From Candidatus Omnitrophota bacterium (GTDB lineage: Bacteria; Omnitrophota; Gorgyraeia; Zapsychrales; JAHFFX01): a stretch of 64,000 bases of DNA. The stretch covers positions 64,160-128,159 of the forward strand of contig JAHFFW010000002.1 in assembly GCA_023247725.1 (NCBI GenBank), given 5' to 3'. This document shows, in pieces, positions 9,001 to 63,000 of this stretch (positions are counted from its first letter, which is position 1; each line of letters starts with the position of its first letter). The notes beneath the pieces were generated by a model. The model made no database searches and was not told the origin of the DNA. It worked only from the letters and a program-made list of their open reading frames with translations. Position numbers and translations under genes: made by a program.

Positions 9001-12000
9001 TCTTCCGCGAGCCGATCATTTCCACGTTTTTCCGGATCGTTCTGGCGCCTTCCGGCTTGGGTCAGCCCCGTTCCGACAGCCCGTATTTCTCCATCTACAA
9101 CGGTTTCATGGAAATCGTTCAGGAGGCCGGCGACAAAACTCCGGAAACCACGTCGTTTGCCAAGGGTTCTATTTATCAAAAAGAGTGGAGCGGCAAAGTG
9201 AAAGACGCCGCCGGCCAGGCCTTAAGACAAGTGTCCTTGGAAGTGATCAAAGAGTTCATCGATAAACAAACACTTGAGGTAATACAAGACGGCAGTGGTT
9301 ATTTTAGTAGACTTGGCTTGGGGAAGTATTCAGATGCAGACGATATTATTGACTCTTTCACGGAGCAGATTAGAAGTATACGGATGGATAAAGATGCCAG
9401 GGATCAATTGCAGGAGGTTTTGGACCTATATTGGGGAGCCGGCGTTGTTGATGTGCACGACTTCTTAAATCAGTTGCAAAAAAATCCGATCTTGATTGCC
9501 CCGGAGGAATTGGCATACATCACGCGGGATGATCTTTTGGATGCGTTGGACCGAACTGATTCATCGCGCCTGAGTTCGAGCAAAAAACAACGTTATAAAG
9601 ACATCCTGCTGGAAGGTATGAATCCCGATGATATCGTTGTTCAACAAGGAACGTTTGTGCAACCCTGGGACGCCGCGGCCGCCGCTGGCCCCGCGATTGG
9701 ATTTGGATTCACTGTCCTGAGTCAGAGAACCTCTGGCGCCCTCAAAGGCGGGAGGCCTCGCGATGCCATTTTCATGTTGGCCAACACCGCCATTCACGAA
9801 GGCGGCGCGGGTTTTTCTTCCTATGGTCTAGGACGTCCCGGGTCATCATTCCCAAATAAACCTGTTTTATTCAAGGGCAGTAAGCTTCCTATGTATTCTC
9901 CAGACGAAGTTAATCACCTTTTGGACGAGCTTGCTGCGGATGAGAGGTTACCCCCCGGACGCAAAAAGGACAAGAGATTTGAGGAAGTCGAGGAGGCTAG
10001 GAATCATAATTTTGCTTTGGTCGGCGGTTTGACCGGGCGGTTTGCTTTGCGTTCGCAATTGCTGGCGCATGTGGAGAAGGCCCGTCGGGAAGGCCGCACG
10101 CAGAGCGTTGGCTTCCGCGGCGGCAATCCGAATCGTCAGGATCGCCATAATGATCCCCATGCCTATGAGATTATCCTGGTGGAAGGAATGGAAGCAGCTG
10201 GTTTAGGTCCGGCGGTCAATGATGGGAACAAGATTTATATCGATCAGGCGGCGTGGAATGGACAGAGCCAAGAAGCGAAAGAAAAGCTGGCGCAGGGCAT
10301 GACTCTGGAAGAAATCCGCAATGGAATCATCCAGCATGAATTCGAAGAAGTCGTGAAAGTCGCCCGCATCGGGCGTAAGTTGGGCAGACAATCCGGTAAA
10401 AAGATGTCGGCCAATCAGGCGGTCGCGCGCGTCAATCAGAGTCGGTACACCAGTTATCGGGCGTTTAAGTTCGGCCACGACAATGCCGCGGCTTCGCCGT
10501 TTGCTTCCACCTCCTCGTCGCCTGAAACCCGCAGCCAGAGTCAGATCGCCAATGATAATGCCAGGCGGGGTTTGGAAGTTCTTGAGCAGCTCGCCAGGGA
10601 AGCCATGGAAGGACCTCAGGCACCGACCACGGCTCAGCCAATGACCGCCGCTGGTTTGATCGAGGGTAAGAAACGAACGCCCTCCTATGCCTGCACCGAC
10701 GGGAATTGTAAGGAAGAAAATCAATTTGCCGCGGCGCCCTTTGCTCAGACGTCCGGTCCCTCCCGGCCGACGCTGCAGTTAGCCACGGTTGCTGCATTGC
10801 CTGACCAGAAGGAGCAGCGTCCGCAAGGATCGACCGACATCAGCAATCAGGGAACCATGACCGGAACTGGTTCGATGATCGTGGAAGATGATGGTTCTAC
10901 TTTCACGTATAAGGGGTTGGAGGGCTCGCTGGCTGTGACCCGAGGCCATTCTTACATGGACCCCACCCACATTAAAGTCGAGAATGCCGGCAGCATCGAG
11001 AGCAATGGTTCAACAAAAATTTATGACAGCAATATTGAAATAAAAAACGAAGGCACGATCAGCACACAGGGGTCAGGCGACATTCATAACGCCAATATTA
11101 AAATTCATGTTAAGCCGGGCGAAACAGTCGTGTTCGGCACAGGTTCGCAAAAGGCGCAAACGACCTTCTCCACCGGGAGTAATGCCTCAGGGAAAGCCCT
11201 GTCACCGGCAGCGACTGCTGTCAATTTCAGTTTACGGCCGAAGACATCGTTACAACGAAATTTCCATCTGGGTGGGGCCACGCCTCGCTTTAGTCCGGGG
11301 GTATCGGGAATGACGATTAAGGGACCGCCCGTATTGCCTCATTTCATCGGCCCACTTTCTTCCAACAACCCTTCCACCTCCTTCTCTAATAATAATACAG
11401 CAAATCCAGCTTCCCCAATTCAGATCGCCAAAGCGCAACCGGCCCAGCTAGCCACACCCAACGCTCAATCTGTGACCTTTACGGTTCCGAGTTCCGGCGC
11501 GATTCAGTTGGCCGGTACGGCAAAAACGCCTTCGACTCCGCTGGCCCTGGCAGCGCTCGCGGCTGTTATCGCCAATGAGCGAAATTCCGGCTCCGCCAGC
11601 CCCGCCGTTGACGGGGCCAACGTCACTGACCATCAACAAAAGATTGCCTTAAGTAGTACCCCCGACCACAATAAACCTGTCCGCCTGTCCTTGAATATGG
11701 GCGAGGGCAGTGTTGTGCTTCCGGCCACGCCGCAAGGGGTAAAATCCGTTGGCCATCCGATGTACGACGTGAGTGGAAGATACGATCATGTTGCTGAAGA
11801 CCAAAGAGGATATCTTGAAGGTCTCCACGGACAATTGGCCGATACGTTTGTAGGAGTGGAGGCAACCGCCAGAAAACTAGGTTTCGATAATTTGCCAACC
11901 ACAGCTCGCGTTGATCCCGACGATTCTTTTGCTGTCTATTATAATGAGCAGAAAGAGATCAAGGTTCAACCAGCCTTTCTCAAAATGGCACAGGCGTCGC

Positions 12001-15000
12001 GGGATGTCGTGATGGCCCATGAATTCGGCCATGCTGCTCGTCAACACAGGCAGCTAATGGAAAAGAATCCATTGGCTAATAAAGAAGAAGCAGAGTTAAC
12101 ACAATCTGAAGTCCATCAGTTGGAAAGAATTGTACAGGGAAATGAACTTCAAGCTGATCAAGATGCCGTAGACATTGCTGTAACAATGCATGGTCCGGAA
12201 GGCGTTGCTGAATCTTTGATGGAGGGGTTGTTTACGGCCCATCAAACTCAGGGCAGTAAAATAGAAGATGTTGTCAGTCAGCCAGCCGGCACAATCAAAG
12301 TGGGTTCTTTTGAATTGGCACCTTATTTCCACATCGTTACTCGAGTGGCTTATGCTTCTCAACGAGCCAATGATGCTGCTGGCAGAAAGTTGTCCCAACG
12401 ACAAAGAGAATCTCTGGCGCTGGCCAGGGAAGCATTGCAGACGACGAATACTCAGATTGAGGCTATTGTACAGAATGGTGGCAGCGTCGAAGGAACAAAT
12501 CTTTTGACCAGACAGCAGAATTTGCAGGCGCGGGTTGACAGTTTGGAAGAATCCCAGAGGCCGAAATTTGATGAACAAAGGACAGCGAACAAAGGATCGG
12601 CTGCGCCGACGGCGCCATCCGTGACCTTTACAGTTCCGGGCTCTGTCGCTATTCAGACGTCCGGCGCGAACGCAACCCATACCACGCAGCTCGCTTTGGC
12701 GGTGCTCGCGGCCGTTTCGTCCGACAAAGACCGCCATGATTCCGCCCAGGTGAATTCGTCCAATAATGCCGCCTCCGGCACCATCGCCGATGAGCGCAAG
12801 GTCGACTCCGCCAGCCCCGCCGTTGACGGGGCCAGCGTCACTGACCATCAACAAAAGATTGCCTTAAGCACGCCGGATCATAATCAAACCACCGGCGCCG
12901 CTCCGGCGAGCGCTTTAGAAAATTTTGATCGAGCCCTGGACCACGTTCTTAAAAACGGTGATCAGGATTTAAATGTACAGCAGCTTGCTTCGTTAACGCG
13001 ATCATTGATCCGTGATAATCCGTCTGGAGATAAATATGTAAGAGAGCAGGCGGCTATGCTGCAAAATCTTTCAGAGGCAAGTGACAACGTTAGGGGTGCC
13101 ATACATGCTCAGTTTCAGCATTTAGAATATTCTCCGGTGGCTATTAATGATGAGCAAAATCAGGCTCTGGCTCGGATGGGACAGCAAATGACGAACGGAA
13201 AGCCCGAGCATATTGCTGTGGCCGCATTTGGACTTAATGCCGGTTTGGGAAGGATAGCGATGCCGTTGGAACAGGAACCGACCGATTCCGATTTTGGTCG
13301 GGATTCGCGGGATTCTCAAACGGTCGATTTTTCCGTAGGTAACTCTAAACGACTGGGGCCATGGAAACGAATTGCCGTCGCGGCGCTGGCGGCGACGATT
13401 GGCTTAACCAATGCGCCGTCTGCTCCTTACAATGCCCCTCAGCAAAATCCGGCAGGAATTTATCAGACGGCGGCTCCGGCGGCTCAAATAGGGGGATTCG
13501 CGGGTATTAATGATGATGTTTATGGGAGCGAGAACGGTAATCACCGATCTTTATCCACACCACAATTAACATCAGAACAACCGCAAGCCAGAAGAAAGCA
13601 GGGATATTCGCCATCTCAATCATCTCCTTTGGGCAGTATTGAAAGCGCTCCGAATAATAATCCAACCAGGCCGACAACAATAAATGCCCAACCCATGGGC
13701 GGAATTTTAGCAAGAAAGTCCCCGACCATAAGGGTAATGCAACCGCCTTTAAATATATCTAGTAGCGCGGCTCCAAATTTTTCACGTCTCGATTTTGAGA
13801 AGAATTTTGCTTCGGATGCCATGACAGTAGGGACTATAGCACAGAGCGCGAGCTCTGTCAACGAGACGAAGGCCGACGCCGCCTCGGCAAAGTCTCAAGA
13901 TAATGCACCCGGAGTCAATACTGCCGACGAGCGCAAGCCCGGTCAATTCTCCCGAAGGTCTTTCTTAAAAGGGGCGATGGGTGCTGCCTTGACACCTCGC
14001 GCGACAGCGCAAAAGTTGATAACCGTTGCTTCTTCCACGAGATTGAATCCAGCGGATTATCAAAAAGTGGCTCAAGCTCTCTATGATACGCCTTATTTGA
14101 CTGGCGGTTTTATGGATGAAGATGGCAATGTATACTTAGAGGCCACAGATTTAAGGGGTGACTACCATTTTTTTTCCCAAAGTCCCTATACCTCGAGCCC
14201 CAACCAGGAGCAAGAAGAAAGAATAATATCATTAATATCATCTGAATTGCAAAAGGATCCGCAGGTTTCGAAATATCTCTCAAAAGCTTTGAAGGACAAA
14301 ACATTATCCGCCACCAGCCATGAGGAATTAAAAAGTTTACTTACGAATATTTTGACAACAAGAGAGTCAGAATTTTTGCCTAAACTTCTACCTAAAATGG
14401 AAAAAATTAGTGTCCAGCTAAAAGAAGTTGCAACGGCAGAGAAATTGGCAGCACAAGTGCTCTGGGAACAGCAAGAAGATCAGATTTGGCGGGCGCGACA
14501 AAATCGGCAAAATCAACAGCCGCAAGAAAAAATCCAAGGGACGACCCACGGTCTTAAGGATGGACTAGAAGACAGCCTCTTCCAGGCCCGGATTGAGTTA
14601 GACGCCACGGAAAAAACAATGGCTCTGATCAGCAGCAACGGTGGGTCGACGAAGGGGACAGATATGCAGACTCGTCGGGACAATTTAGCCGCTTTGGTGG
14701 CGAATTTGGAGAGCCGCTTAAAGCAGGATGGGGGAAATTCCGCCTCCCAAAGCCAAATCGCTTCAGCGCCGCCAACCCAAACTCTCACCCCGGGGGTGAG
14801 AGGCGGTCAAAATAACACCCATTTGATTTTGGCGGCGCTCGCGGCGGCCGTTGCGCCGGACCGCCATGATTCCGCGCAGGTCAATTCGCCCCAAGCCCAA
14901 GCCGTTGTCATCGCCGATGAGCGAAGGGCCGACGCTGCTCAGGTGAATTCGTCTCAAGCCAGTGATACAACAATTGCCGATGATCGGCAGGGTTTGAAGC

Positions 15001-18000
15001 TGGCTCGGACTCGAGAAAAAAGCGTCACCGCCGGCGACCCGGCCATGTATTCCACGAAGCCAACGCCGGAACCGGGCGAACAGCTTGTTGTCTTGGAGGT
15101 GGATGAAAAGACCGGCAAAACCCGGATTGAGAATTTTAATAATCCCGAGGGGATAAAAGTCAGCGGTTCCGATCGGGAAATCGGGCTGGGTCAAGCGGCC
15201 AGCTTCGACAGCGATGCGATCGAGATACAAGAAGATAAACAACTTTCTTTTGACCGGAAAACGGAACGCGAGGCAGTGGAAGAATTGTCCCGGCTTGGGC
15301 TGGGAGTGGAGCACAACGGTCAGCTCATCGTCAAGCAAAGCGAGCTGGAAAAGATCGGCTATGACGCCGACTGGCAACATAACATCACCCGAAAAATACA
15401 GAGTGAAGAGGCCGGTCTAGCCGAAGATCGGAGTTTGATTAAGCAAGCAACGGAGAAAGAACTCGGGGCCGACCATCCGGTCAACCAAGGTATTGAGGAG
15501 GCTCGCTCTGAGCTTTCCAACGGAGAGAAAAAGCAATTTGATCAGATGCGAGAGCAGGGCCGGATTGTTTCTATGGAACTGGGTGAAGATATCGAAAAAG
15601 CCGAAAGCCGGGAGGCAGACCTTAAGAAGGAAGCCCTAGCCTTAGCCCTAGCTTTGCTCCATCTATCTCCCTTGGAGGCGGCGGTTTATAAGAAAAGGAT
15701 GGAGGGGCTGGAGCCGTCCTCGATGATCATTGGCGAGGGCAATGAGGCGTATATGGTGATAACCCCCAAGTCCAGGCATCAAGCCCTCCTTCAAGAGAAG
15801 CCCTCGTATAAGGCGGCGGTGCTTAATGAATGGAATGTGATTAAGGATTCCAGCCTCACTCCGGAGGCCAACATTAAGAAACAACTGGAGAAACAGGGCA
15901 AGGCGGGCAGGCGCCTGATCAGCTTAAGCCAGTTGAGATTGCGGCCGGGGTCAGATGAGGTTCAAATTCAGGGACAAAACATTCCCCGCATTAAGTCTCC
16001 TGGAGCGCAAGCTGGCTCTCCGACGGATGTGAAGCAAAAGCAAAACCAAAGCCCTATGATTCCGCAGAAGATGTCCGGTCCGCGTCAAACGCTCGACTCG
16101 CAAAAGGCGGTGGTCATTCCTTTCGATGCAAACAAGCAATTAATGATCACTCTGAGTGGAGAATCCGTCTCGTTTTTCAAATTGAAAGACGGCGCCATCG
16201 ATTTCCAAAGAAATAATGGAAATCTGCGCACCGCAGAACCTGGCCAAGTCTATGGATACAGCTTACCCGGGCAATTGGAACTGGGAATAGCTTTGAGCCC
16301 CAAAGGAGAGCTCTTGCTGTTCAATGCGGCCCCTGCTCAATCATTGGAGGTTGAAGTTCAACCGATTAAGGAGCCTTTAATACATCCTAATGATTACGAG
16401 GTGACTCATTCGGACTTGGGCGAAGACCGGGATCAAGACGGGCTAAGGCGATACAGCCCCCGCCATGTTTCTTCCGGAGATCGCGGCGTTTATCCTTTTC
16501 ACGGGGATGCTGTTAAAGTGAAAATTGAAGGCGCTTTGGTTGAATTCAAAAAAGACAAAAACGGACTGCAATATCAACGTGAGGGGGGAAGTCTCCACAG
16601 AGGAAAATCCTATAAAGTGCGCGGGTCGGACGGCGAAGTGTTATTTGATTTACAGGTTGGGCTTAATGAGCGCGGCGAGCTGGAAATCAAGAACATCGGA
16701 AAAAATGAAATCGAGACCCGCCAGCTTGACTCCGCCAAGCTCGAAAAAGGCGAAGGCAATGATACGAATTTCGCCGATCCGACCGACGCCGCGCAGGCCG
16801 AGGCGCGGGATCAGATTTCCGTTAATACGAACGACGAACGACGAACGACGAAATCCGACTCCGCGCAGGCGGACAAATTCAAAGGCTCCCTGACGATTTC
16901 GCGCGATGATGAGTCCTCGGATCGTACGCCGACCGACGCGGCGAAGGCGGAGGATTTAAGAGTGGCCCAATTGAGTTCCGAAATGCCGACGGAAGAGGTT
17001 CAGTCGCCAAGATTTGAAAATTGGAAAGCGAGATTGACCGATTCTGCGCACTCCATAAAACTGGTTTTCAACTGGAAAAAAGAAGAAAGGGCTGTAGATG
17101 GATTATATCAGCAGGCCTTGGCCGCATCGGATACCAATGCCAGATCGCAGGCCGTCGAAGGTTTAGTTCAAGCCGCGCATCGTCGAGGCCTTTCGTGGAG
17201 AAGTAGTATACCGGCATATTCGGCAAATACTTATCTAACGATGTTGTTTAGAGATCGGAAGTACACCGCCCAGGTGGCTTCCAGAATGAGCAAGCAAGAA
17301 ATTGCGGATATGATTGTAGGAAATGCCGCCTATTCTTCAGCGGACCTTGCAGCAAGATTGTCAGATTTTTCGTTGATAAGAGGGGCCTCTCATTCTTTAG
17401 CCGACGTTGGAACAATGTTGTCCGATGTACAAGATCGAGAGGACTTCCCAGAAATTCTCGCGCAGGTTGAAAAGAAAATCCAAACCCGCGCCAATGATTC
17501 AGGGCTTTCCGAGTATTCTCAGAAAAAAGTTGCTAAAGCCGCTTTGGACTATGTCCAGTGGGTGTTGAATCAGACGTCTGGGGATTCGGGAAACAATCTT
17601 CGACTTCCCCCCGCCGCAGACCGGATCGTCAAGGCCCGAAGCGTTGTGGAAAAGAATTTGAATTTTTCAGATAGACTTGGATTCTCCGTCGGCGAAGATT
17701 CGCAAAACCAGGTGAATCCGGCAACGGTTGAAGAGAAGAAGCAGGCCATGGCCCTCACTATTTTCAGGATCGCCGCTTCCCCCGGGAAAATCAATTTAAC
17801 ACAGGATCTTAATTACGTGAACCGATTTGATTGGGATCGCGTGAAGCTGTATTCGCCGGAAATCCAAAAACGATTAACCCGCGACCGGATTAATCATGAG
17901 CATGGCAAAAAAGATAACCGCCGCAAGGCGATTGTGGTTTACACCAAGGCGGATAATAATGGGGTGTTTAATAATGAGGCGGTGATTAAAGGCCTGATGG

Positions 18001-21000
18001 CGGCCGATTTTAACATACTTTTTTATGAAGTTGACGGAAATACCGATGCTGAGGTCGAAGATAATATTGTGAAGGCCTTGAAAGCGGCCACCCGGGATTT
18101 TACTGAACCGGCTGACTTTATCGATTTCGGAGCGCACGGCCCGTACACCGCCGACAGCATGAACTATGGAAAAGGAGGAGCGCTTACCGTAGGCCGTTGG
18201 CAAGCGCTAAGGGGGAAAGTTTCCGGCGCTTTGGCGGAAAAAGGACGAGTGCTGCTTGAAAGTTGTTTTACGGGCAAGGGCGGTCTTGAGCAAAGTAATC
18301 CGGCGAATATGTGGGCCATGGTCTTCCCTCAGGCCGCGGAGATTTTGGCGCCGAACAAGGCTGCTGCCGTAAAAAGCTTTGCCATTGACCGCAACAATGA
18401 AGTGACGATTGAGCATTCTCACGGAGCTTCTGTTTATCGTGCTAATCATGATCAACTGAGCCGGTTTGAAGCGTCGGTTGAGTCATCGGATATTGGAAAA
18501 CCGGTTGTGAAGAAAGTCGACGACGCGGCCCAGGTCGGCACTCCGCCCCAGATGCAAATGCGCGCCGCCGATCCCCGCAGGGAATTGTTGCGCCGGCGTT
18601 TGACCGACGCGGTGGATGCGCTGGTCATGGTCACCGGCAAGCGGGAGAGAAAATCCGCCAAAATCGAGGTGCGGGCCGCGGCTAACGCTTTGGTGGCGCA
18701 GGGAGACCGGGATTTTGTGGGAGAGAAGTTGGATGCTTTAAGCGGCCTGATCGCCGCCGATGACCGGCTGCATCCGGTGGCCGGCGGGCTGGGCGTCATG
18801 ACCGCGAAATCAACGCCGTTGCAAAACCAACAAGCGGCGGCGGCGCAGAGTTTATCGTCTGAGGAATTAGGAAATGTCGCGCAATCGATCGATGTCTTGC
18901 AAAGCGCCTTGGGAACGGAAGGCTTCTCCCGTACCGATATCTTGGATCAAATCAAGCGGGGAATGCATCAAGAGGATTTCAACGCCCACCGGCAAGCCAT
19001 TGAGCAATTAAGCGATAATAATTTGGTACAAATTAAAAATTTTGTCGACGTGGCCGACCGGCAGCAAGTGCGGGAAGGAATGGCGAATTTGTTAGGCCTC
19101 GCCCAGCAAAGGGACAATGAAAACAACCCCAGAGAGCTCAACAATGATGACCTGATGCTGGTTTTAAATCGTCCGGACACCGACGCAACGCCGGTTCAAT
19201 CTCAATCCCCCATAAAGGTCAGTCCCTGGCGGGGCAGATTGGTCATGGTGCCCAAGCTCGTCGCTGCGGTGGTTGCGGTGGCGTTGATTGTGCCGGCGAT
19301 CGCGAGTGCCGCCGGGGCGGTAGGGGAGATCGGTCCATTGGCTCAGCACCCGAATCTTCCCCCGACGGGCGATCAGATGGGGGCCCAGCCTACTCAAGAC
19401 GTGCAGCCAGTCCTCAATGTTCCGACCCAAGCGGAGATCCCGAAGTCTCCGGACATTAAACCGGTTGAATTGAAAAACGCCACAGCAGAATCGGATCCGC
19501 AGGGTTCGCCCGAGGAAGTGCGGCCAACGCCGGTGGAACCCATCCATTCCCCGATCGGTACAGAGTTAACGGCGCCAACGGCACCTGACTCTTCCGAAGC
19601 GGTTATTCCTTTGGTGGAACCGATCCATTCCCCGATCGGCACAGAATTAGCAGCGCCAACGGCGCCTGATTCTTCCGACGAAGTGGTTGTTCCTTTGGTC
19701 GAACCCATTGTCTCGCCCATTGGCACACAATTGACGATGCCGACGCCGGTGACACCGGAGCCAGCTCAAGGCACGGCGGCCGGTCAGCTGACCGATCTGA
19801 CGATGGAATCACCGGCGAGTATTGAAGCTCCCATAGCCGAGTTTCCGCTCCATGAATTACCCATGGCAAAATTATCTCCGCTATTGACTTCACCGACCCT
19901 GGATGTGGAAGCGCCGTTGGCAGAAATTCCCGACCAGGCGCCGGTGACATCCTTGGCCGAGCCGCCGGCGAATCCGCACCCCGACGGCGTGCCGGTGGTG
20001 GTAGAACAACCCGGAAAGGGTAAAGGAATAATCCAACAGCCTCCCGCACCGTCGATTTCTCAAATTTCCAAAACGAAACCGTCACCGGTCGTGGCGCAGC
20101 CCGTTGTCAAACGACCGGCGCCGGAAAAAACAAGCACCAGCACGATAGAACGGCCGCCCGCTTCCCATTCTTCCGGGACTTCTCAAACGATCACCCTGCC
20201 TCCGCCGGAGCCGCATGCGCCGGCGGTTTCCCAAATAGCCTCCGCCGATACACATTCCCCGGTCCAGGTCGATACCACTCCGCCGACGCTGGAAGAGAAA
20301 AAAGCGGGGGATAGAGATTCTCAGCACGGCGGGGTTTCGGCTAAAGAGGCCAGAGATCAATATATGAAATCCTCTAAGGCGTTTGGGGATCAATATATAA
20401 GTTATTTCTTGGATACGGGCGATCAACACCTTAAAGATGGAAATAGGAAAGCAGCGAGAGAGGCCTATGCTAAGGCCTTGCAGGCGGGAAAGACTCTCAA
20501 CGACGGTGAACATGCCCGGCTTGCCCAAAGTAAATTGGACGACCTTGAAGGCGGCCAGCCTCCTTCTTCGGAATTTCCATTTAATGCGACTGGCGCCGCT
20601 ATCACAGGGATTGGGTTGCTTGCGACCGGCCTGGCAGGTTATGGCGTCTATCGTCAACGACGGCAGCGCTCCGCGCGGAATCGTCCTAACCCAGCAAAAG
20701 CGGCCTCGGTTGCGCCCCGCCTGTCTGCGGAAATACCGGTGGAGCGGCGTCAACAACCCTTGGTTGAATGGTCCTTTGACAAGCCCAATCTGGCGCATGC
20801 CGATCCCGACAAACGTCAGGTGATGCATATTGCGCCGGATGAGGACCCTCTGATTACTTCACCGGTTTCCGGTACCGTGCATATCGGTGTTCGGGATAAC
20901 CAAGGGAATTGGACGGAAGTAGAAGATCGGCCGCTTACTTTGAATCCGCAAACCGGCCGGTATGAACTTCGCGTGACCAATCCCCGCGCCAACGTCTTTA

Positions 21001-54000: not shown

Positions 54001-57000
54001 TCCTGGAGGACCCCTCTGAATATTATTATTTTCATTTGGAGCCGGTCGTGTTGGCCGCTGCGGCAGGTTCGCAGCCGGCGATTGATTTGTTGGGGAAGGA
54101 ATTGGCGCGGCAGGGCGCGAGATTAGAACAGGATTACTACCGGAGTAGAGAAAATGATTTCCGTTTGAACAAACAATACGATCGACAGAATTGGGAAAAC
54201 ATTCTGGATTTATTTGCCGTGGGGATGCGATATCCGCAATTGCGGGGACAGGTCTTGCCAATTCTGGAGAGGGCGATTGCACGCGGCGATGAGAAGGCCT
54301 TTGCCCTGGTTCGTGACAGCATCCGGGCGTTATTGTCTGACTCCGCGAGTGTCGACCGGCAAAAGAATCTGCCCATTCCGCTGGCGGATGACCTAAGCAC
54401 GATATCCGGCAACCCGACGGAAGCGGTCGCCTGGGTGAAGGCAAATGAAGCAACCCTCAAATCCGACCGTGAGATTCCACCGGGCGCCATCCGGTCTCCT
54501 CCGACGGAACGACGCGAAGCCTACGCCATTGATAACACGATTCCCCAAGAATATATGGACTTACGCGATCGTGATGACGTTCTTCAAGCAATTCGTAACG
54601 CGGCCGATGTCGTACCCCAGCCCCAGCCTGCTGAAACCATTGCCCAATCAAGAAGTGTTCCGCGGATTGAGCTGCCACCATTTCGAGAAAATCCTCAACG
54701 GATAGAACTTCCGCCCTTCCGCGAAGACTATCAACCGCAAAGACCACCCACATTCCGTTCTGAAGAACCGAAATTTTCTCAATGGACCAAGTGGTTGGTC
54801 AGGGTTGCGGGCGTTGCTACGGCTCTTCTCGCGTTTCAATTGAATCAGGAAATACAACCGCCTCCGCAGTCCCCGCAGGGACAAGTTGTTCCGCCAACAC
54901 CAGCAGATATTGCCAAGAAACGGGAAGAACTCCGACTCTTCAGTAAAATTCCGCCAGCACCGTCGACAAAACCCGGTACGAGTACGAACGGTCCAACAAC
55001 ATCCGAAAACAAGACGAAGGAACCAGGCGCACCTTCTTCTACCCCAGCCGAACGTGGCCAGCCGTCTCCCGGGGTCATTACCCCGCGCTTACCGTTGCCG
55101 GATGGTGTCTTTCCAGAGGTCAGAAGGATGTTTCCACAAACTCCGGGACAAGAAGGGCGAGGACCAACTTCTCCTTCCCGGCCTCAAGAACCTTCTTCTC
55201 AAGAAAGGGAACAAACTTCTCCTTCCCAGCGCGGCGCGCCTTCTCAGGGAGCCGGCAATCAACAAGGGACACCGGCTACCGGTGACATCGTGATCCTGCC
55301 CGTTCGGCCTTTGACCCCACAAGAACAATTGTTCTTGAATTTATTCGGGCTTGAAAAGAAACAGCCCGAGAAACCTTCGGACAGCAGAACTCCAGGCGTT
55401 GGGGAGGGGCGGATCGTCATTGGATCGATGGAATTCAAGTTTCGCCTGCCCACGATCAGCCGCGGTGACCGCGGTCCGGCGGTGCGGACGCTTATGCGAA
55501 TTCTGAGAGTGGTGTTTGACGGCGAGGATGGCATTCGGTCTCTTGCGGGCAAGACGAATCCGCTCACTGGCCGACCTTATGATGAGGAGTTTGCCCGTCA
55601 AGCCTTACAGCTATGGCAAACAGCCCGTCGAGACAGCGAATCTATTGAGGAATATACCGCCAATGTGGAACGAGCGATTGTCGCCCTCCAAAACGCATTC
55701 GATATTAGAGAAGACGGTGATGTAGGGCCCGAAACCTGGAGTTTACTCGGTGAATTGCTGGAAGCATACCAGCGCCTCATAGAAGAGCGCCAGAAACCGC
55801 GGCAAGTCGCTTCTCTGGAAGGTTCGATCAATACGTTGTTGGAGTCCATGGGAAGTCCGTTTCGAGTGCCGTCCAATACGGATCAATCCACCGATGCTGC
55901 AAAGCTGGAGACCCGACAGGAACAAGATTCCACAGTTGCAAGACCCACGGAGCAATCCAAAGCCCAAATGATTCCGTCCTCTGATGCCGCGAGTGTTACT
56001 TCGAATGAAGCGGATCGCCAAGAGGATCGAATGGGTAAACCTGATCAGTTGAAACAGGGTATTTCTACACCCAAAGATGAAATAATTGAGCCAGAGTATA
56101 AAAAGTCGCCTTTAAGAGGGTTTGCCAAGATGTGGAATCAGTTCCGAAATAGAAGGCTGGTGCCTTCCAAATCTTCTACAATTGGACCTCATTTTCCGAC
56201 GATCTCCCCCACACTATTGCAAATATTCCATCTTAGTGCCTTACCTTCCTCTAATAATACGCCGGTTGGAACTGATGAACGCGATCGTGGTTCAAAGAAC
56301 GGCGCGTTGCCAGCACCCCCAACCCTTCCTGCCCCATCGGAAAGCACCTTGCCTGAGCCGCCAGGCAATAGTGGATCAAGTGGTGGTTTTGCGAAGGCAA
56401 CCAGCGCTATTGTTCAGTACGTAAAAAGCCTAGCCTCTAAGGATGAACATCTAAATTCTGAAATTATCAATAAAGAACAGGAAAAAGGTAGCCAATGGGA
56501 GCGTCTTGCCTCCCGTAAGGACCCAACGAGCAAATCAGGCGTTGGACCTTGGAACATTAGAATGCTGTCCGCCATTTCCGCAATGGCGCAGACAGCAGTT
56601 AGGAATGTAGGAGCGCGGATAACAAAAATTGGAAGCAGTGTTGTCAATGCAGTTAGCAGTTTCTTTGTAGCAGAAGCATACGCAGCAGAAGTAGCAGGTA
56701 GTGAAGTAACACGTAGCACTGTTCTGAATGCAGCAAAGCAAGTAGGTAATGGACTCAATTTGGCTGAAAATAGTTCCGGCAACGGGGCTGCTAAAGCTGA
56801 AGAGAGATCCTTATCGGTGGTTCCCGGAGTGCGGCGAACGACAGTTCGTGCAACCGGTAGTAGGGTAGTGAATGTAGAACCCTCTAATCGCAGTTTGGTT
56901 AGAGTTATCGTCAAGTTAGCACAGGCAGTAAAAGCAGTAGTCAGAAGCAGAAGTACGAATAAGCAGTATCGCTCTGTCTATGGCAATAAGGTTGCTGAAA

Positions 57001-60000
57001 CCGGATCTGCCATTGATGAAAGTGCAGTAGAAACACCGAAGTATCGTTCTCATCGCATCATCGGTAATGCGGTTAGTTTAGTTGAAGCCGGTGCCCGTTA
57101 CACGGTAGCGGCCATAGCTCAGATTATCCGCAATTCCAAGGTTCTTAGAGTGTCTGTTCGTAAGAATGGACAATTTAAGAATAAAGCCTTAGATTCCGAG
57201 ATCGATGGCAGTAGAAGTAAAGCTCAAGCCGTAACGTTAGGCTTTGAGCCGTATCGTTCTGGTAATAGAGAAGCAGGTAATAATCTCCGGTTCGCAATAG
57301 GTCTGGTCTTGGCGAAAGCCGTGACTGGAGCTAAAGCTGACTTGAGAGCGTTATTGAAGGTTCTTGGAGTTTATCTCGCCGAAAGGCTGGAAAAGGTCCG
57401 AGAAAAAATCTTTGGTTTTGCTGGTTCCCTCAAGGTCCGTATCAATCGAGTTGGGGCGAACGTCGGCCGGCAGGCCAGAGAGGGTTCTGACAAGCGTGTC
57501 AGCCATGGCACGGCTGCAGTCTTTACTGGCAAGTTCAGCAGTGTTGCAAGTAGGGTAATTGCCCTAGCAATAGCTAGGATCTTTACGTTACTTACAGTTC
57601 TTAGAGTCCGCCTGGCAGAAGTAATCAAGGTACAGGCTGAAGCTGAGAATAGCTTCTTGGAGTTTGCACTCTCTACCTTTGATAGTGGTAGAGTCGACGC
57701 ATTAGAGACTTCAAGAGACACTGTTACTAGTCGTAGAGAAGATGAACGTGGTTCTCAGCGTAATGTTCCAGTGGTGGAAGCAGTGGAAACTGCTGAAGCA
57801 CTGGCATCTGAAATTCTCGGAGTGCGTCAAGGTGCTGAAAAAGACCGAAATGCGACCGGGAATTCCGACGTTACCGGGAACGTAATTCTTGCTCAGCAGG
57901 ATCGTTCAGTTGGTGGAACTGGCAACGAAGTCAACCTTGCTGAAGCTGTTAACGTTAACGCCCTCATGGGTGATCGAACAACAGCCGCAGCAAGCAGTGC
58001 TTCCAAGCCTGAGAATTTCGGAGTGCGATTGGCCAAATGGCTCAACGTGATCCGAGAGTGGTTTTTGAAGACTGTCCCCTCGAGCCTAAACAGGATCGAG
58101 GTTAAAGCTTTAAGAACCAACCGCAAGACCACCAATAAAAATGTAGCTCCAATTGTCAACACTGAAACGAATACGTTCGTTTCAGTGGCTTTGCAAACTC
58201 TGTCTGTCAAAGTTCGCAATGCAAGAGAACTTTGGCAACGGAGAAAGTCTGTTTCTGCAGTCCAAGAGTTGATCTCTACTCAGATTTCCAACCTACGTCG
58301 TCTCATTCAAACCCTCAAAGAATTCGCTAACGTTCAATCAGTTCCTAACCAAGGAGGATTCCCATGGACAAGAATATTCGTTTTGACCATTTTGTTGAAT
58401 TCACTAAGAACGACTGCCTCTTTTGCGCAGGCCGTCAACCGGGCAGCAAACGTCGAAGTTTATACCTCATCGTTAACCACACCGGCCGGGTCTATGAACG
58501 ACATTTTAATAGCTGGCGCCTTGTCGATTCTGATGCTGAGTCTCATATTCGCCGCGAGGCCGAGAGCGCCAAGCTCGGAGGTGTCCCGTGTTACGTCACA
58601 CACAGCCACTTCAGCAATTAATCCTGCCGCAAGTATTCTTTCTGCCGCTTCATTAAGTAATCCTCATCGTGTAACGATTGATCAATCATCCATGTTTGAT
58701 TCTGCCCAAGTTGAATTGCTCCCCAACATTCAGGCCCAATTGGCCTACCTGGCCTTGAATGGTCAGAATGCAACCTCGCTGATCGATACCATCCTCACTT
58801 CAGAAACCGGAGACACCACCCAAGCCGAAAATCTCCTTCGGCAACTTCAACGTAATGCCCAAATGAGGCCTAGCGATGATGTGTTAAAGCCGTTTATTCT
58901 GTCGAGAGTCCACAGCATTAACCTAAAAAATCCGACCAGCAGCGACTTGAAATATATGATTTGGGCTTCCCGGAGAGGTTACCGTTTATCAAATGAGATG
59001 CAGAACTTAGTTGGCCGGGCCACAACCCTAATTGATGATGACGAAATGATGAAGGATTTGGCCGTGCAGATTTTGCCCTTTATGCGGGGTGCAGCGACCG
59101 AGCGCTTGGTCGATGTGCTCCGCCCCGAAGGTGTGGTTCGTTTCCTGGCTAGCGATACCATGCGTATCGTAGGCATCCAAAGGGGAGAGGTTTTGCCGGA
59201 ACGTGAAATTCTCGAAGTCATTGCGCTCAGAGTCAAGCGGGGTGTTTATGATCGAGATGCCTTAAAGGCGGAATTTGACCGGCTTTATTCCAGTGATTCT
59301 CAGCAGAATTTATTGGAAGGCATCTTTGACCGGAATATGGATCGTTTGGAAGCTCTGGCGAAGTTGCTCGAGGAAGATGAAGAAGATAAAGAACAGCAGC
59401 GCATCTTCTTCAAACCGGAAGATGACTTGGTCGGCTTGACGGTGCGTTTGCGCGAAGCGACGGTGGTGCAAGATGAGGACGCGCTTCAACCTGGTCACCA
59501 ATTCGACCAAGATTTATTGCATCGCCGCTTAAGGCGGGAAGGACAGCTGGAAATTCATGACCTGGAGCGGCAATACAGCGAATCCCTCAAAGAATTGGAC
59601 AAAAATTATGCCAATCGTCACACCAATGACAGCCAGAAGAAGGCCTACAATGACGATAAGAAAGATTTGGACAAGTGGCTGACCGAACAAAAGCGCCAGG
59701 CGAAAATCCGCCGTCAGTTGCAGGAACTGGGATTTGCCTTGCACACTCACAAGATCGTGCAAGGGGATCTGAGGCTGTTCCGCCGATCCTTGGGAACGAT
59801 GGTCTATGACGGTCTGTTTGTCGGTGAGAAGGACATCCTGGCGCTGTTGAAGAAAGACGTGGATGTTATGGACATGATGGCGCAATGGGATACCTTAGTC
59901 GATCCAGCGCAGCGGAAAGAATTTTACCGAGATTTCATGATCGCTCCGATGATGGCCAACCGCGGCCAATTTGATGTGAGCCAATTGATTCTCCGGTTGT

Positions 60001-63000
60001 CTCATCCGCAGCATATGACCTTGTATCTGGAAGATCATATCGAGCTGGTTATTCCGGCTCAGCAAGCGCAAGTTGAGAATGATGCCCAATTCATCCGCGA
60101 GCAGGCCCAAGTGGCGGTTGTGCCTGGCGAAACCAATGAAGACCTGGGGGACATTGCTTCCAGCCGGGGAGGACGAAAACTCATGCAGTCGCTGCCTCTG
60201 CCCAACGGGAATGTCTGCGTGGCCTCCATGCCCGAAGAAACCGCCCGCCGCGGGTTCAGGTCGGCCGGTGACCTCGAATGGGGCCTGAACCGATATCGCA
60301 TCATTAAAGATTGGTTGAAGCACACCTTCGGCCGGCCGCGGATCACGCAATTCATCAGCCCGCGGGGGCAGGAAGCCCTCGCGCATGCCGTGCGCTCCTC
60401 TAATCCTCAACGCACCCTGATGATGATCAGCGGCTTCGCCGGGGCAGTGACCAATGATATGCTGGACGAGTTACGATCGGTTAATTTCGCAAGTACCAAT
60501 AATGTGCGCACGATCCTGACGGTGGAGGCCATCTTCGACGCGATCCGCGCCGATCACGAAGAACCACGAGACCGGGCCAGGCTCGAAGAACTGCAAGAGC
60601 ACTATACAGAATATGTTCAATCCATTTCGGATCCGAGCTCAGATTATTTAAAGACTCAAACAGCCTTTGCCAACAGTTGCAGTGCGGCGGCAGATGCCAG
60701 CGATAAGGCTTATGTCGCTTACCGCCAACATGCGGATGGGGTGAAAACCCAGGGAAGAATCTTTCAGCTTTTGGCGATTGGGAACATGACGGTTAAGGAT
60801 GCGGTCGAACTGATGGAAGATACCGACAGCAAGGGTTATAAGGCCATCCAGGAAGAAGTTCAATACGATCTCGATAATCGCAAGACCCAACGTGGCGGCA
60901 AGCTGGTCAAATTCCGCGCCAGGGCCATGGCGGCCATCCGAGCTCAGAGAACGTTTGGATTCTATATCAAGAAATATGTCTTGGTCCCGCTGGCCGTTCA
61001 GATTGCGGCCATTGTGGTGCTTTATTTAGTGTTCCATGTCATCGCCGTCATGGCTGCAACATGGGGGGTTGTCCACCTTTCCTTACTGGGTTTTGAAATT
61101 GTCACCATCAATTTCGCTGAGGCTCTGACCTTCAGCCACGTTGTTGCATTCAATCCGATAGACAAAGCCCAAGCCATTCTACCGTTTATTCTCTCGGTCG
61201 TCTTGCTCATTGCCCGTCACGAATACGGCCATGATCTGCACGCCTTCATGGTGGGTGATCCTAATAAACAAGGAACAAATGAACCATCTCTTTGGAATTT
61301 ATTTAAGAATATTCCGCAGTATATAAAACCAATGAATCTTTTCGGGATGGTCTTCTTTGGCGGTCTGGGACAGGGCGGTTCGACGACCATTAATCCCAGA
61401 GTTATGAGGAACAAAGGATACCGGTTTGTCGCTTTAGGTGGACCGTTATTCAACATCCTGGGCGCCTTGAGCGGACTTATCCTTTGGGGAGCGATGAGTG
61501 TATTGGGTCACTTTGTGACCATCCCGGCCTTGATCATCTGGGGGACTAAGATCCTGATCCTGGTTGACCTTTACTTTGTTATCCCCAACCTCATTCTGGC
61601 CATCTCGGTCAAACTTCCGATGATGGGCGACTTGACGTCGGACGCGGCCCATATCTACTTCGGCAAAAAAGCCGTCATGAATGAAGACAAAACAAAGAAC
61701 CACATACCGTTCTGGTTTAAGATATTCAGCTGGGTTCTACTCGCCGGATTCTTCTATTTCCAATATGCTCATTTTTATCGTTGGGTTAGTGCCATTGGGG
61801 CCCGCATGGGATTGACGGCGATCAATCTGCCTGCCCTCCAAATCGCCGCAGCCGGCTTACCGTTGAAGGAAATCATGATCGTGATTGGCATTATTCTCTT
61901 GATCGCGATGGTGGTCAAGCTGAGGCACGGAGAACCCGGAAAAGCTACTGCGATATTTTCGTTGTTCGGATTGTGCGTCGGGATTTATCTCCTCATCGGT
62001 TCAAACCAGACGTTTACTGTCGGCGCGATGGTGACTGGCTTTATGAAAATTCTGGCAGCTGTTTCTACGACCTTCTTGACCATTGGAATCGTCCTCGCCT
62101 TGGCCGTCCTCATCGCTCAATGGGCCTCGAAGCACTCCTCACAAATTAAAGTGAAGGTCACCCGGGTGTTGCTGATCCTCGGGGTCGTGTCCGCGCTCTT
62201 AGGCGCTAGCGGAGTCCTCTATCGGCTTCATGCCGCCGGAGAGCCGGTACAGTCTTCACAGACAACGGTTGTTCAGCCTCGCGCCCCGCCGCCAGGGGGC
62301 ACCACCACGCCGACACCCGCGGCCGCCCAACCACCGGCTCCGGCGACGCAAACCACGCCGACCACGCCGGCGCCTGCCGCTCAATCGTCACCCGCGCCGG
62401 TCGCCGGGCAACCGGTCCAGCCGGCGGGAGCCGGGACTCAAGCTCCGCCGTCTCCGACGACACTACAAACCACCCAGCCGCCGGTTGCAAATCCGCCGCA
62501 GGCTCCGGATGCCGCGCAAGCGACTGCGAGTTCAGCTGCTGGCCAGGCCTCAGCCCCAGCTCCAGTGCCCCCGCCACCCGCATCCGGCCAGGCCTTTGCT
62601 TCTGCGGGGCCGCAAGGCTTGCCAGATCGCACTGATTTATTGATCGTTGCCGACACCGCGAAACTTTCGCAGGATCAAAAGGATGCTCAGTCTCTGCACA
62701 TTTATACATTGGATGAAATCATCTGGAAGTCAGTGGAGAATCTGAAACGCCGCGCGCAAGCCCCGGACGCCGCAACGAAGGATGCTGCCGCCGTCACCTT
62801 GGCCGGGGCTCTGGAGCCCCGCCAGCTGTTCTTTGGGAACGTGGAAAACGGCCGGGTCCTGATGCTCAAGGTTAGCGATGAGCCCAAAATGATCTTCTTC
62901 GACAATACTCTGGCGGCGGCCGGCGATAAAGCGGGGGTTGATCCTGCCAAGCGGGTCGATATCACCTATGTTAATCTAACCCGCGATAATAAGGTGTGGT

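Follow-up and report, generated by a model that had tools for sequence, protein, structure and literature searches.

A giant open reading frame of an Omnitrophota bacterium is divided into protein-sized modules by a recurrent junction peptide and carries an embedded M50-type protease domain

In the current work, a stretch of 64,000 nucleotides (nt) from a Candidatus Omnitrophota bacterium (contig JAHFFW010000002.1, positions 64,160 to 128,159; hereafter the window) was analysed, and was found to be occupied from end to end by one giant open reading frame (ORF), which is modular, is punctuated by conserved junction peptides, and encodes two methyltransferase domains, a tetratricopeptide repeat (TPR) array and a membrane-embedded M50 domain. 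The window is read here, with a confidence slightly above even, as an internal part of an ORF exceeding 21,332 codons whose product would be a membrane-associated giant protein with the arrangement of beads on a string, the beads being separated by the repeated junctions. A further step, to which a little less than an even chance is given, is that this chain would be cleaved at or close to the junction peptides, yielding separate proteins of which some would subsequently be exported.

The reading frame and its junction peptide

Six-frame translation of the window showed that frame +3 is free of stop codons from nt 3 to nt 63998, corresponding to 21,332 codons, as compared to 470-1203 stops in each of the other five frames (in the numbering used throughout, amino acid i corresponds to nt 3i to 3i+2). 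A first-pass annotation of the same DNA had described positions 11950-62235 as a mosaic of unrelated enzymatic modules in one polypeptide. Considering that frame +3 is open across the whole window, this interval lies inside a gene whose length exceeds 64 kb; the description as one polypeptide with unrelated enzymatic modules held, its boundaries did not, position 62235 being where a cluster of transmembrane helices stops and frame +3 continuing past it. All motifs listed in the first-pass annotation were found at the positions given for them. The GC content by codon position (0.59/0.42/0.55) and the steady purine skews are consistent with a real coding sequence.

The ORF and the region containing the junction motifs are located as follows:

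3..63998, plus strand: single ORF, free of stop codons and running off both ends of the window
11613..62588 (amino acids (aa) 3871-20862), plus strand: about 40 junction motifs, located by 5-mer counts, regular expression and hidden Markov model (HMM)

The junction peptide emerged from an unbiased counting of 5-mers, in which the most frequent words were DAAMA (seven occurrences), DAAQV (six) and DAASV (five), the maximum in shuffled sequences usually being 3 and never exceeding 5. The corresponding generalised head, D-[AGS]-A-[QMS]-[VA], occurs 37 times versus 0.7 +/- 0.9 times in shuffles, and opens a motif of approximately 27 residues with the general sequence x-D-[AGS]-A-[QMS]-[VA]-x(8-12)-[ST][ILVT][AS][DE][PDEM]x[RK]. 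An HMM of the junction retrieves approximately 40 copies between aa 4243 and 19589 and one more at aa 20833, while a paralogous variant (DGANV) is present at aa 3871 and none is found in the first 3,870 residues. The positions of the heads (in aa, plus strand) are:

3871, 4246, 4275, 4625, 4956, 4977, 5595, 5619, 5645, 6174
7329, 9693, 9717, 9750, 9965, 10445, 10485, 10684, 10997, 11015
12023, 12072, 12718, 13703, 14458, 14797, 15440, 15824, 16148, 16475
16876, 16943, 17290, 17320, 17641, 17675, 18113, 18661, 19566, 20836

The junctions often occur as tandem pairs or triples spaced 20-35 aa apart, their flanks are hydrophilic and rich in S/T/R/P, and their tails fall into the subtypes ...ADER[KR], ...ADPxR and ...SEMPT. 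The copies employ mixed codons at the invariant positions and have a mean nucleotide identity of 36%, which together indicate that conservation acts on the peptide. On account of this mean identity, with only one pair reaching 85%, the possibility that the copies arose by recent DNA duplication was rejected. This pair, being the sole junction duplicate of recent appearance (85% identity over head-centred 84-nt windows), belongs to a 45-aa sequence, DAAMAQRRKE.ST.SYEPTQ.EQ.ATARHS.AAMAA, which flanks the CheR-type module described below on both sides (51870-52020 and 52923-53080). The second Ala of the head is encoded by GCG in 20 of 37 cases, versus 32% overall (p 0.007).

The 28 junction clusters bound 27 modules of 172-2337 aa (median 411) over residues 3871-20836, and every domain that was recognised sits alone in one module. 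Moreover, three Pfam models, when projected to their full C-terminal extent, stop 4-30 residues ahead of the next junction head:

PrmA model, plus strand: projected end aa 14767, next junction head aa 14797
CheR model, plus strand: projected end aa 17636, next junction head aa 17641
Hpr_kinase_C model, plus strand: projected end aa 15820, next junction head aa 15824

Four modules carry, shortly after a junction, a segment in which a pair of arginines precedes a hydrophobic stretch (RR segment), in the manner of a twin-arginine translocation (Tat) signal:

13950..14018 (aa 4650-4672), plus strand: Tat-like segment SRRSFLKGAMGAALTPRATAQ / SRRSFLKGAMGAAL, about 25 aa after a junction head
29316..29399 (aa 9772-9799), plus strand: RR and hydrophobic segment FRRIGMKALLVGALMAIPAFASAHG (FRRIGMKALLVGALMAIPAFASA at aa 9775), 28 aa after a junction head
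38241..38312 (aa 12747-12770), plus strand: RR and hydrophobic segment MFRRWMSRLAVPVLTTVLSGSA, 33 aa after the junction head at aa 12718
49572..49637 (aa 16524-16545), plus strand: RR and hydrophobic segment PRRSFFTAIAAPFVLASSG, 52 aa after a junction head

The segment at aa 4650 contains the exact Tat consensus SRRSFLK and, when scanned alone, scores 24.0 bits with the Pfam model TAT_signal (PF10518), the cut-off of which is 22.7 (E 5e-3 in 1000-aa chunks), while MFRRWMSRLAVPVLTTVLSGSA opens the module that carries the second of two HELGH motifs (see below). Across the chain, six of ten RR and hydrophobic segments lie within 80 aa after a junction, a zone which makes up 12% of the chain (binomial p 4e-4). 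Internal translation starts ahead of the RR segments were considered and rejected, since an ATG is present at only one of the four and no consistent Shine-Dalgarno sequence precedes them. For its function a Tat signal needs a free N-terminus, a position which the segments do not have in the intact chain, and this constitutes the main reason to suspect cleavage near the junctions. Both the repeated junction motif and the internal signal-peptide-like segments, which organise the mosaic, had been missed by the first-pass annotation.

Recognised and putative modules

About 2% of the chain is recognised by Pfam when scanned as 1000-aa pieces and offset pieces, the matches being to the two methyltransferases and the TPR array. 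The domain that required indirect evidence lies near the end of the window, in a membrane region:

60960..62228 (aa 20320-20742), plus strand: polytopic membrane region, a dense cluster of transmembrane helices by hydropathy scan
61179..61799 (aa 20393-20599), plus strand: M50/site-2-protease-type domain with HEYGH, GDP, NP, GGPLFN and LPMMGD

The HEYGH motif is situated at the end of a transmembrane helix (ILPFILSVVLLIARHEYGH, Kyte-Doolittle mean 1.92). A direct scan of this region with the Pfam M50 model (PF02163) gave no match even at E <= 10. When aa 20300-20745 were compared exhaustively by phmmer with 1.84 billion representatives, exactly four proteins were retrieved at E <= 1e-3 (1.7e-4 to 9.2e-4), all of which are small COG1994-type M50 proteins (Pfam M50 E values of 8e-15, 2e-13, 8e-8 and 8e-4), three of the four exceeding the Peptidase_M50 cut-off and one being annotated as 'site-2 protease family protein'. 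The HExxH, GDP, NP and GPxxN motifs are invariant in the alignment with these four proteins, and an HMM derived from them finds only aa 20393-20599 of the chain (44.4 bits). The LDG motif is degenerate, as NLILAISVKLPMMGDLTSD (LPMMGDLTSD) aligns with NLLPLPPLDG, the candidates for the third zinc ligand being Asp20543 or Asp20548. At the level of sequence comparison, and by way of bona fide M50 intermediates, the HEYGH module is confirmed as a domain of the M50/site-2-protease type; the site-2-protease-like character that had been proposed for it is upheld by these intermediates, by the invariant motifs and by the reverse HMM search. When set beside small COG1994-type proteins such as HPO05931.1 of Candidatus Gracilibacteria, to which it is 25-30% identical over approximately 160 aa, the domain shares the HExxH at a helix end followed by GDP, NP, GPxxN and, later, LP...D; it differs from them in its position near the C-terminal end of the chain within the window, in its extra transmembrane helices, in the degenerate form of NxxPxxxLDG and in escaping the Pfam M50 model.

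The remaining modules and segments of interest are:

43875..44165 (aa 14625-14721), plus strand: PrmA-type class I S-adenosylmethionine (SAM) methyltransferase with GFGDG, AVDNN and DVLVANLP
52278..52844 (aa 17426-17614), plus strand: CheR-type SAM methyltransferase with CheR-like motifs LLGSSNGDDPVTKA and DAVFINSILYEV
26010..26474 (aa ~8670-8824), plus strand: TPR array (TPR_2 E 7e-9; TPR_1, TPR_12 and TPR_8 above their cut-offs)
47004..47174, plus strand: P-loop with Walker A motif GGEGSGKS (aa 15675, starting at nt 47025), sub-threshold profiles
55455..55748 (aa 18485-18582), plus strand: PG_binding_1-like helical motif with an insertion of ~45 aa
11694..12737 (aa 3898-4245), plus strand: HEFGH module, with HEFGH at nt 12018-12032 and NELQADQDA at nt 12141-12167
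35379..35507 (aa 11793 and aa 11828), plus strand: first HELGH and EGIAETYA, motif only
40263..40394 (aa 13421 and aa 13457), plus strand: second HELGH and EFGGDLFA, motif only
30093..31322 (aa 10031-10440), plus strand: copy 1 of a duplicated module, degenerate zincin-like GEVGH...GVHEIFDSLATNY
44763..46262 (aa 14921-15420), plus strand: copy 2 of the duplicated module, AETAH...GVDEAYEALLQDY, by alignment and self-BLAST
17919..18422, plus strand: segment with the proposed clan-CD dyad, His6045-Gly (nt 18135) and Cys6088 (nt 18264)

The two methyltransferases, which the first-pass annotation had called PrmA-like and CheR-like from motifs, were both confirmed by profiles, and SAM-binding motifs are readable in each. 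The PrmA-type domain scores 36.9 bits against a cut-off of 22 with Pfam PrmA (PF06325, E 3.7e-9) and 28.5 against 27 with Methyltransf_25 (PF13649), and among PDB sequences it matches 3grz (E 2e-5) as well as PRMT chains. Its score with the NCBIfam PrmA models (45.8 bits, E 4e-12) is far below their equivalog cut-offs of 183-269, which indicates a methyltransferase of PrmA type and not a PrmA orthologue. The CheR-type domain is marginal with Pfam CheR (PF01739; 27.1 bits against 27, model positions 3-173 of 195), scores 31.2 against 27 with Methyltransf_25, and reaches E 2e-3 with NCBIfam CheR at 17.2 bits, the equivalog cut-off being 435; the CheR motif that usually reads GCS reads SSN in the giant chain. 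The TPR array is additionally matched by designed TPR proteins in the PDB (E 8e-5), and in a search of the whole protein against PDB sequences only this array and the PrmA-type domain gave matches, short-segment searches at E <= 10 being empty or yielding noise.

Two further proposals from the first-pass annotation are plausible, although the profile matches of the unaltered sequence fall below the curated thresholds. The Walker A motif is present where it had been indicated, in a probable P-loop module which is possibly HprK-like, judging from AAA_29 (E 4e-4, 20.4 bits against 27), Hpr_kinase_C (E 0.011) and three more HprK-type NCBIfam models (E 0.015-0.19). The PG_binding_1-like signature is probably a helical motif of that kind, of which only the second half is matched (PF01471, model positions 25-57; 19.0-22.2 bits against 23, E 1.7e-4); in-silico excision of a 41-aa insertion raises the score to 24.8 bits, the first helix is visible by eye (GDRGPAVRTLMRILRVV), and three endolysin PHROGs match at E 0.06-0.3.

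HExxH motifs number four in the whole chain, namely HEFGH at aa 4006 (nt 12018-12032), HELGH at aa 11793 (nt 35379-35393), HELGH at aa 13421 (nt 40263-40277) and HEYGH at aa 20406 (nt 61218-61232), as compared to 0.41 expected from composition, and only 0.05% of shuffles reach four. The three soluble ones had been presented as ImmA/IrrE-like zincins with a downstream Glu motif; their coordinates proved exact, and each is followed 35-42 residues downstream by ELQADQDA, EGIAETYA or EFGGDLFA, respectively, these being the sole three matches to a loose pattern chain-wide, a pattern which was fitted to those same sites and is therefore not independent evidence. The resemblance to the third-ligand helix of M78 (E-x-x-A-[ND]-x-F-A) does not go beyond the motif, and extends equally to M48 and M56. 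The ImmA/IrrE label turned out to be too specific: the best, sub-threshold match of the HEFGH segment is Peptidase_M48 (PF01435; E 1.6e-3, 18.8 bits against 20.3), followed by M91 (E 4.5e-3) and M78 (PF06114; E 0.098, 12.9 bits against 22), so that this module is probably an M48-like gluzincin, while both HELGH modules, which have no profile match in Pfam, NCBIfam, PHROGs, PADLOC or PDB sequences, may be termed gluzincin-like on the strength of their motifs alone. No zincin or peptidase was matched in PHROGs or PADLOC, and no similarity among the three HExxH modules was detectable, their MAFFT alignment being unreliable. In common with gluzincins of families M48 (HtpX/Ste24/BepA), M56 and M78, these modules have a lead-in rich in beta-strands and a helix bearing HExGH, which a second helix (Glu-x-x-A-[DE]) follows after 35-42 residues; on the other hand, none of the scores reaches a family cut-off, and for two of the three modules no family model gives a match.

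The duplicated module of ~400-500 aa, the copies of which are 34% identical and each end at a junction, no longer has, in either copy, the initial His of HExxH (GEVGH and AETAH), its GVxE..[DE][SA]L..[ND]Y helix being conserved. The only Pfam match of copy 1 is Peptidase_M78 (E 7e-3, 16.6 bits against 22), and a search of PDB sequences with a profile of the module found nothing.

For the proposed clan-CD cysteine peptidase, the local sequence looks right by eye (FIDFGAHG ... RVLLESCFTG) and the residues are located where they had been placed. However, a comparable His-Gly/Cys dyad arises in 9% of shuffles, a second dyad exists in the chain at residues 7129/7189, and no match of the segment was found in Pfam, NCBIfam, PHROGs, PADLOC or PDB sequences, leaving this call unsupported by profile, fold or statistics. 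Of the checks that had been suggested for the mosaic, Pfam profiles bear out the methyltransferases and neither clan CD nor the HELGH modules, while AlphaFold2 models and fold searches of two segments, the HEFGH module and the dyad segment, were uninformative.

A hydropathy scan of the 21,332 aa detects ~20 hydrophobic segments. The strongest anchor among these and several other features of the window are:

19230..19340 (aa 6410-6446), plus strand: hydrophobic, signal-anchor-like segment WRGRLVMVPKLVAAVVAVALIVPAIASAAGA, Kyte-Doolittle 19-residue mean 2.61
19532..19732 (aa 6510-6577), plus strand: tandem repeat of 81 nt, ~2.4 copies with 81-85% matches
62235..62702, plus strand: low-complexity linker rich in Pro/Thr/Ala/Gln (93% P/T/A/Q/S/G over aa 20761-20860)
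63114..63998, plus strand: transmembrane helix (aa 21038-21065) and Lys/Glu-rich tail

The 81-nt repeat, located just past the anchor, encodes a Pro-rich unit of 27 aa (VEPIHSPIGTELTAPTAPDSSEAVIPL). Beyond the low-complexity linker, which comes after the M50 membrane region, one more transmembrane helix with positive residues on its C-terminal side is followed by a Lys/Glu-rich helical tail which runs off the edge of the window. At the opposite end, aa 1-3870 (nt 3-11612) lack junction motifs, Pfam matches and strong transmembrane helices, and hold only short internal repeats of ~28 aa (aa 673-700, 831-859 and 896-925), an architecture unlike that of the rest of the chain. Cysteine is strongly depleted chain-wide (10 Cys in 21,332 residues, 0.05%). 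Opposite the giant ORF, frame 3 of the minus strand is locally open for as many as 280 codons (e.g. 27909-28748, 43143-43916 and 51138-51902), these stretches probably being shadow ORFs that result from the codon pattern of the giant ORF, and tRNA and Rfam scans of the window gave no match.

Possible readings of the giant chain

The explanation put forward here is that the chain would be a polyprotein or pro-protein, which is cut at or near the junction peptides so as to release stand-alone enzymes. For at least four of the released enzymes, a twin-arginine or Sec-like signal peptide would thereby come to lie at the N-terminus and lead to export, while the SAM- and ATP-dependent modules would stay in the cytoplasm. 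Candidates for the processing enzyme would be the metalloproteases embedded in the chain, or else a peptidase whose coding sequence lies beyond the window. In its most far-reaching form, which we regard as possible and rather doubtful, the junction D-[AGS]-A-[QMS]-[VA]...[AS]-[DE]-P-x-R would be a dedicated processing signal, at which one of the embedded metalloproteases or a peptidase from another part of the gene would cut and so convert more than 21,000 residues into ~27 proteins, the gene thereby resembling an operon devoid of stop codons.

A number of observations weigh against this explanation. No link was found between any of the proteases and the junction sequence, the gene ends and the neighbouring genes lie beyond the 64-kb window, and ~98% of the residues have no profile match. 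The Asp of the junction is encoded by GAC in 26 of 37 heads versus 38% overall (p 1e-4), and this codon bias (heads at, e.g., nt 12738, 29079 and 51870) may reflect a constraint at the nucleotide level. Only one of the four RR segments passes TAT_signal, and the strongest anchor (aa 6410-6446) is off-pattern, being located ~215 aa downstream of its junction. A crude topology according to the positive-inside rule was tried and dropped, as it implausibly put the methyltransferases and the P-loop, and thus SAM- and ATP-dependent modules, outside the membrane. The AlphaFold2 single-sequence models of the HEFGH module and of the dyad segment each have a predicted local distance difference test (pLDDT) value of 47, and fold searches with them retrieved generic folds with no significant match; at such a pLDDT these searches are uninformative and not negative. 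Lastly, no relative was found for any part of the chain except the M50 core. In this regard, a word-indexed search of 5.8 billion proteins at E <= 10 gave no relative for aa 3800-6400, 11601-14800 and 16333-21332 (12,800 of the 21,332 residues being covered by such searches), no related locus was found in genome, metagenome and viral collections, an exact 50-mer of the sequence did not occur in the genome and metagenome collections, and plasmids contained no tblastn match to the zincin and dyad modules. This orphan status is in agreement with the poor conservation published for giant Omnitrophota ORFs.

An alternative is an intact chain, in which the protein would act unprocessed as a membrane-anchored multi-enzyme 'coat' or scaffold, the junctions being conserved flexible linkers or interaction motifs and the RR segments being transmembrane anchors that thread the chain through the membrane. 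Such a scaffold would agree with the ~20 hydrophobic segments, which match the helix density reported for giant Omnitrophota proteins (mean 22 at >=10 thousand amino acids (kAA)), with the linker-like composition of the junction flanks and with the failure of three of the four RR segments in the TAT_signal scan. However, a plain linker does not require that a five-residue head be preserved through ~40 copies whose codons are mixed, an exact SRRSFLK consensus is useful only at a free N-terminus, and in size and in Pfam model register the modules correspond to complete stand-alone proteins, so that we hold this reading to be doubtful as well. The biological interpretation given in the first-pass annotation, in which three ImmA/IrrE-type zincins, a clan-CD peptidase, a site-2 protease, two methyltransferases, a P-loop and a peptidoglycan-binding module together form a weapon against another cell's envelope, appears unlikely to us, and the attack itself is speculative. 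It draws on the confirmed methyltransferases and site-2-protease-like domain, on the near-threshold PG_binding_1-like motif with its weak endolysin PHROG matches, on the weak M78 matches (E 0.098 for HEFGH and 7e-3 for copy 1 of the duplicated module) and on literature in which giant Omnitrophota proteins are proposed to take part in degrading the cell wall of prey, to which it has to be opposed that clan CD is unsupported, that the HELGH modules match no family and HEFGH weakly prefers M48 over M78, that no glycoside hydrolase, amidase or lytic transglycosylase domain was detected in 21,332 residues, and that the PG-binding-like motif shares one transmembrane-free stretch with the SAM- and ATP-dependent modules.

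The 98% of the chain lacking profile matches, the absence of detected homologues, the loss of the first His in both copies of the duplicated module and the non-significant dyad would also be expected if the ORF were real and, apart from the methyltransferases and the M50 core, consisted mostly of pseudo-enzymes, the 'catalytic' motifs having arisen by chance or being remnants, in a protein which evolves fast and is for the most part structural or disordered. This is considered quite improbable in view of the four HExxH motifs, all of the form HE[FLY]GH where 0.41 were expected and three with a correctly spaced Glu helix, of the HEFGH score within 1.5 bits of the M48 cut-off, and of the M50 motifs HExxH, GPxxN and an Asp-containing LP..GD being retained. 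That the frame is an artefact, i.e. an assembly chimera or a long frame which is not translated, would fit a sequence absent from the collections searched and without detected homologues, and is nevertheless extremely unlikely, since 64 kb are stop-free in one frame as compared to 470-1203 stops in the others, the codon-position GC is of coding type, and the chain contains genuine domain matches, transmembrane clusters and diverged internal paralogues.

Relation to known giant proteins and significance

ORFs of more than 20,000 codons have already been documented, mainly in Omnitrophota, and their function is obscure. Giant Omnitrophota ORFs are known to carry methyltransferases, peptidases, TPR and many transmembrane helices (10.1101/2023.11.21.568195; 10.64898/2026.06.07.730766), the mean being 22 helices in proteins of >=10 kAA (10.64898/2026.06.07.730766); they are poorly conserved with few annotated domains (PMC10066038), and 80% of them are singletons in sequence clustering (10.64898/2026.06.07.730766). 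By its architecture, the ORF described here belongs with these poorly conserved, transmembrane-rich multi-enzyme giants as the closest known kind, and the mosaic represents an orphan member of an already known class. With the 'Archaeovorins' (West-Roberts et al. 2023, 10.1101/2023.11.21.568195) and the 'multi-enzyme' class (Nielsen & Lui 2026, 10.64898/2026.06.07.730766) it shares a single ORF of more than 20,000 aa, about one transmembrane helix per 1000 aa, the lack of close relatives, and methyltransferase, peptidase and TPR domains scattered in largely unannotatable sequence; it differs from them in that no glycosyltransferase, glycoside hydrolase, NUDIX, SecA-DEAD, C39 or convincing HEAT domain is present within the window. 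Neither a recurrent junction peptide nor internal Tat-like signals came up in term searches of the full text of both papers (10.1101/2023.11.21.568195; 10.64898/2026.06.07.730766), and a full-text literature search found no paper combining such ideas. In one of these works, internal signal-peptide calls were discarded as chunking artefacts (10.64898/2026.06.07.730766), while the other states that it is not known whether giant ORFs function as a single chain or undergo cleavage, nor at which points (10.1101/2023.11.21.568195).

Processed multi-domain chains provide two further points of comparison. MARTX and large clostridial toxins carry arrays of effector modules which are set free by a clan-CD cysteine protease domain within the toxin, and resemble the giant chain in being very long successions of unrelated enzymatic modules and linkers with embedded protease(s) that could release them. 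In contrast to these toxins, the clan-CD domain is unsupported here, the junction is a conserved 27-mer and not a simple Leu site, RTX repeats are absent, and the modules include membrane-embedded parts and carry signal-peptide-like segments of their own. In viral polyproteins, a single ORF encodes modules of protein size separated by a short sequence that recurs at the junctions, together with embedded proteases and with internal signals which act after cleavage. All of these elements have a counterpart in the giant chain, from which viral polyproteins differ in that the domain content here is bacterial (Tat motif, PrmA, CheR and M50), in that the chain is 10-fold larger, and in that its cleavage is only proposed.

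The window thus adds to the known giants an orphan ORF whose motif-level domain calls have been sorted by profile tests into real, borderline and unsupported ones, an M50 intramembrane protease embedded in a giant chain, and a conserved junction peptide dividing this chain into protein-sized modules, some of which start with segments resembling twin-arginine signals. The junctions offer a rational way to split other giant proteins into units for structure prediction. If they are processing sites, they would furnish exact predictions for proteomics, and the question of whether and where giant bacterial proteins are cut would, if the proposed explanation is true, gain concrete sites at which it can be tested.

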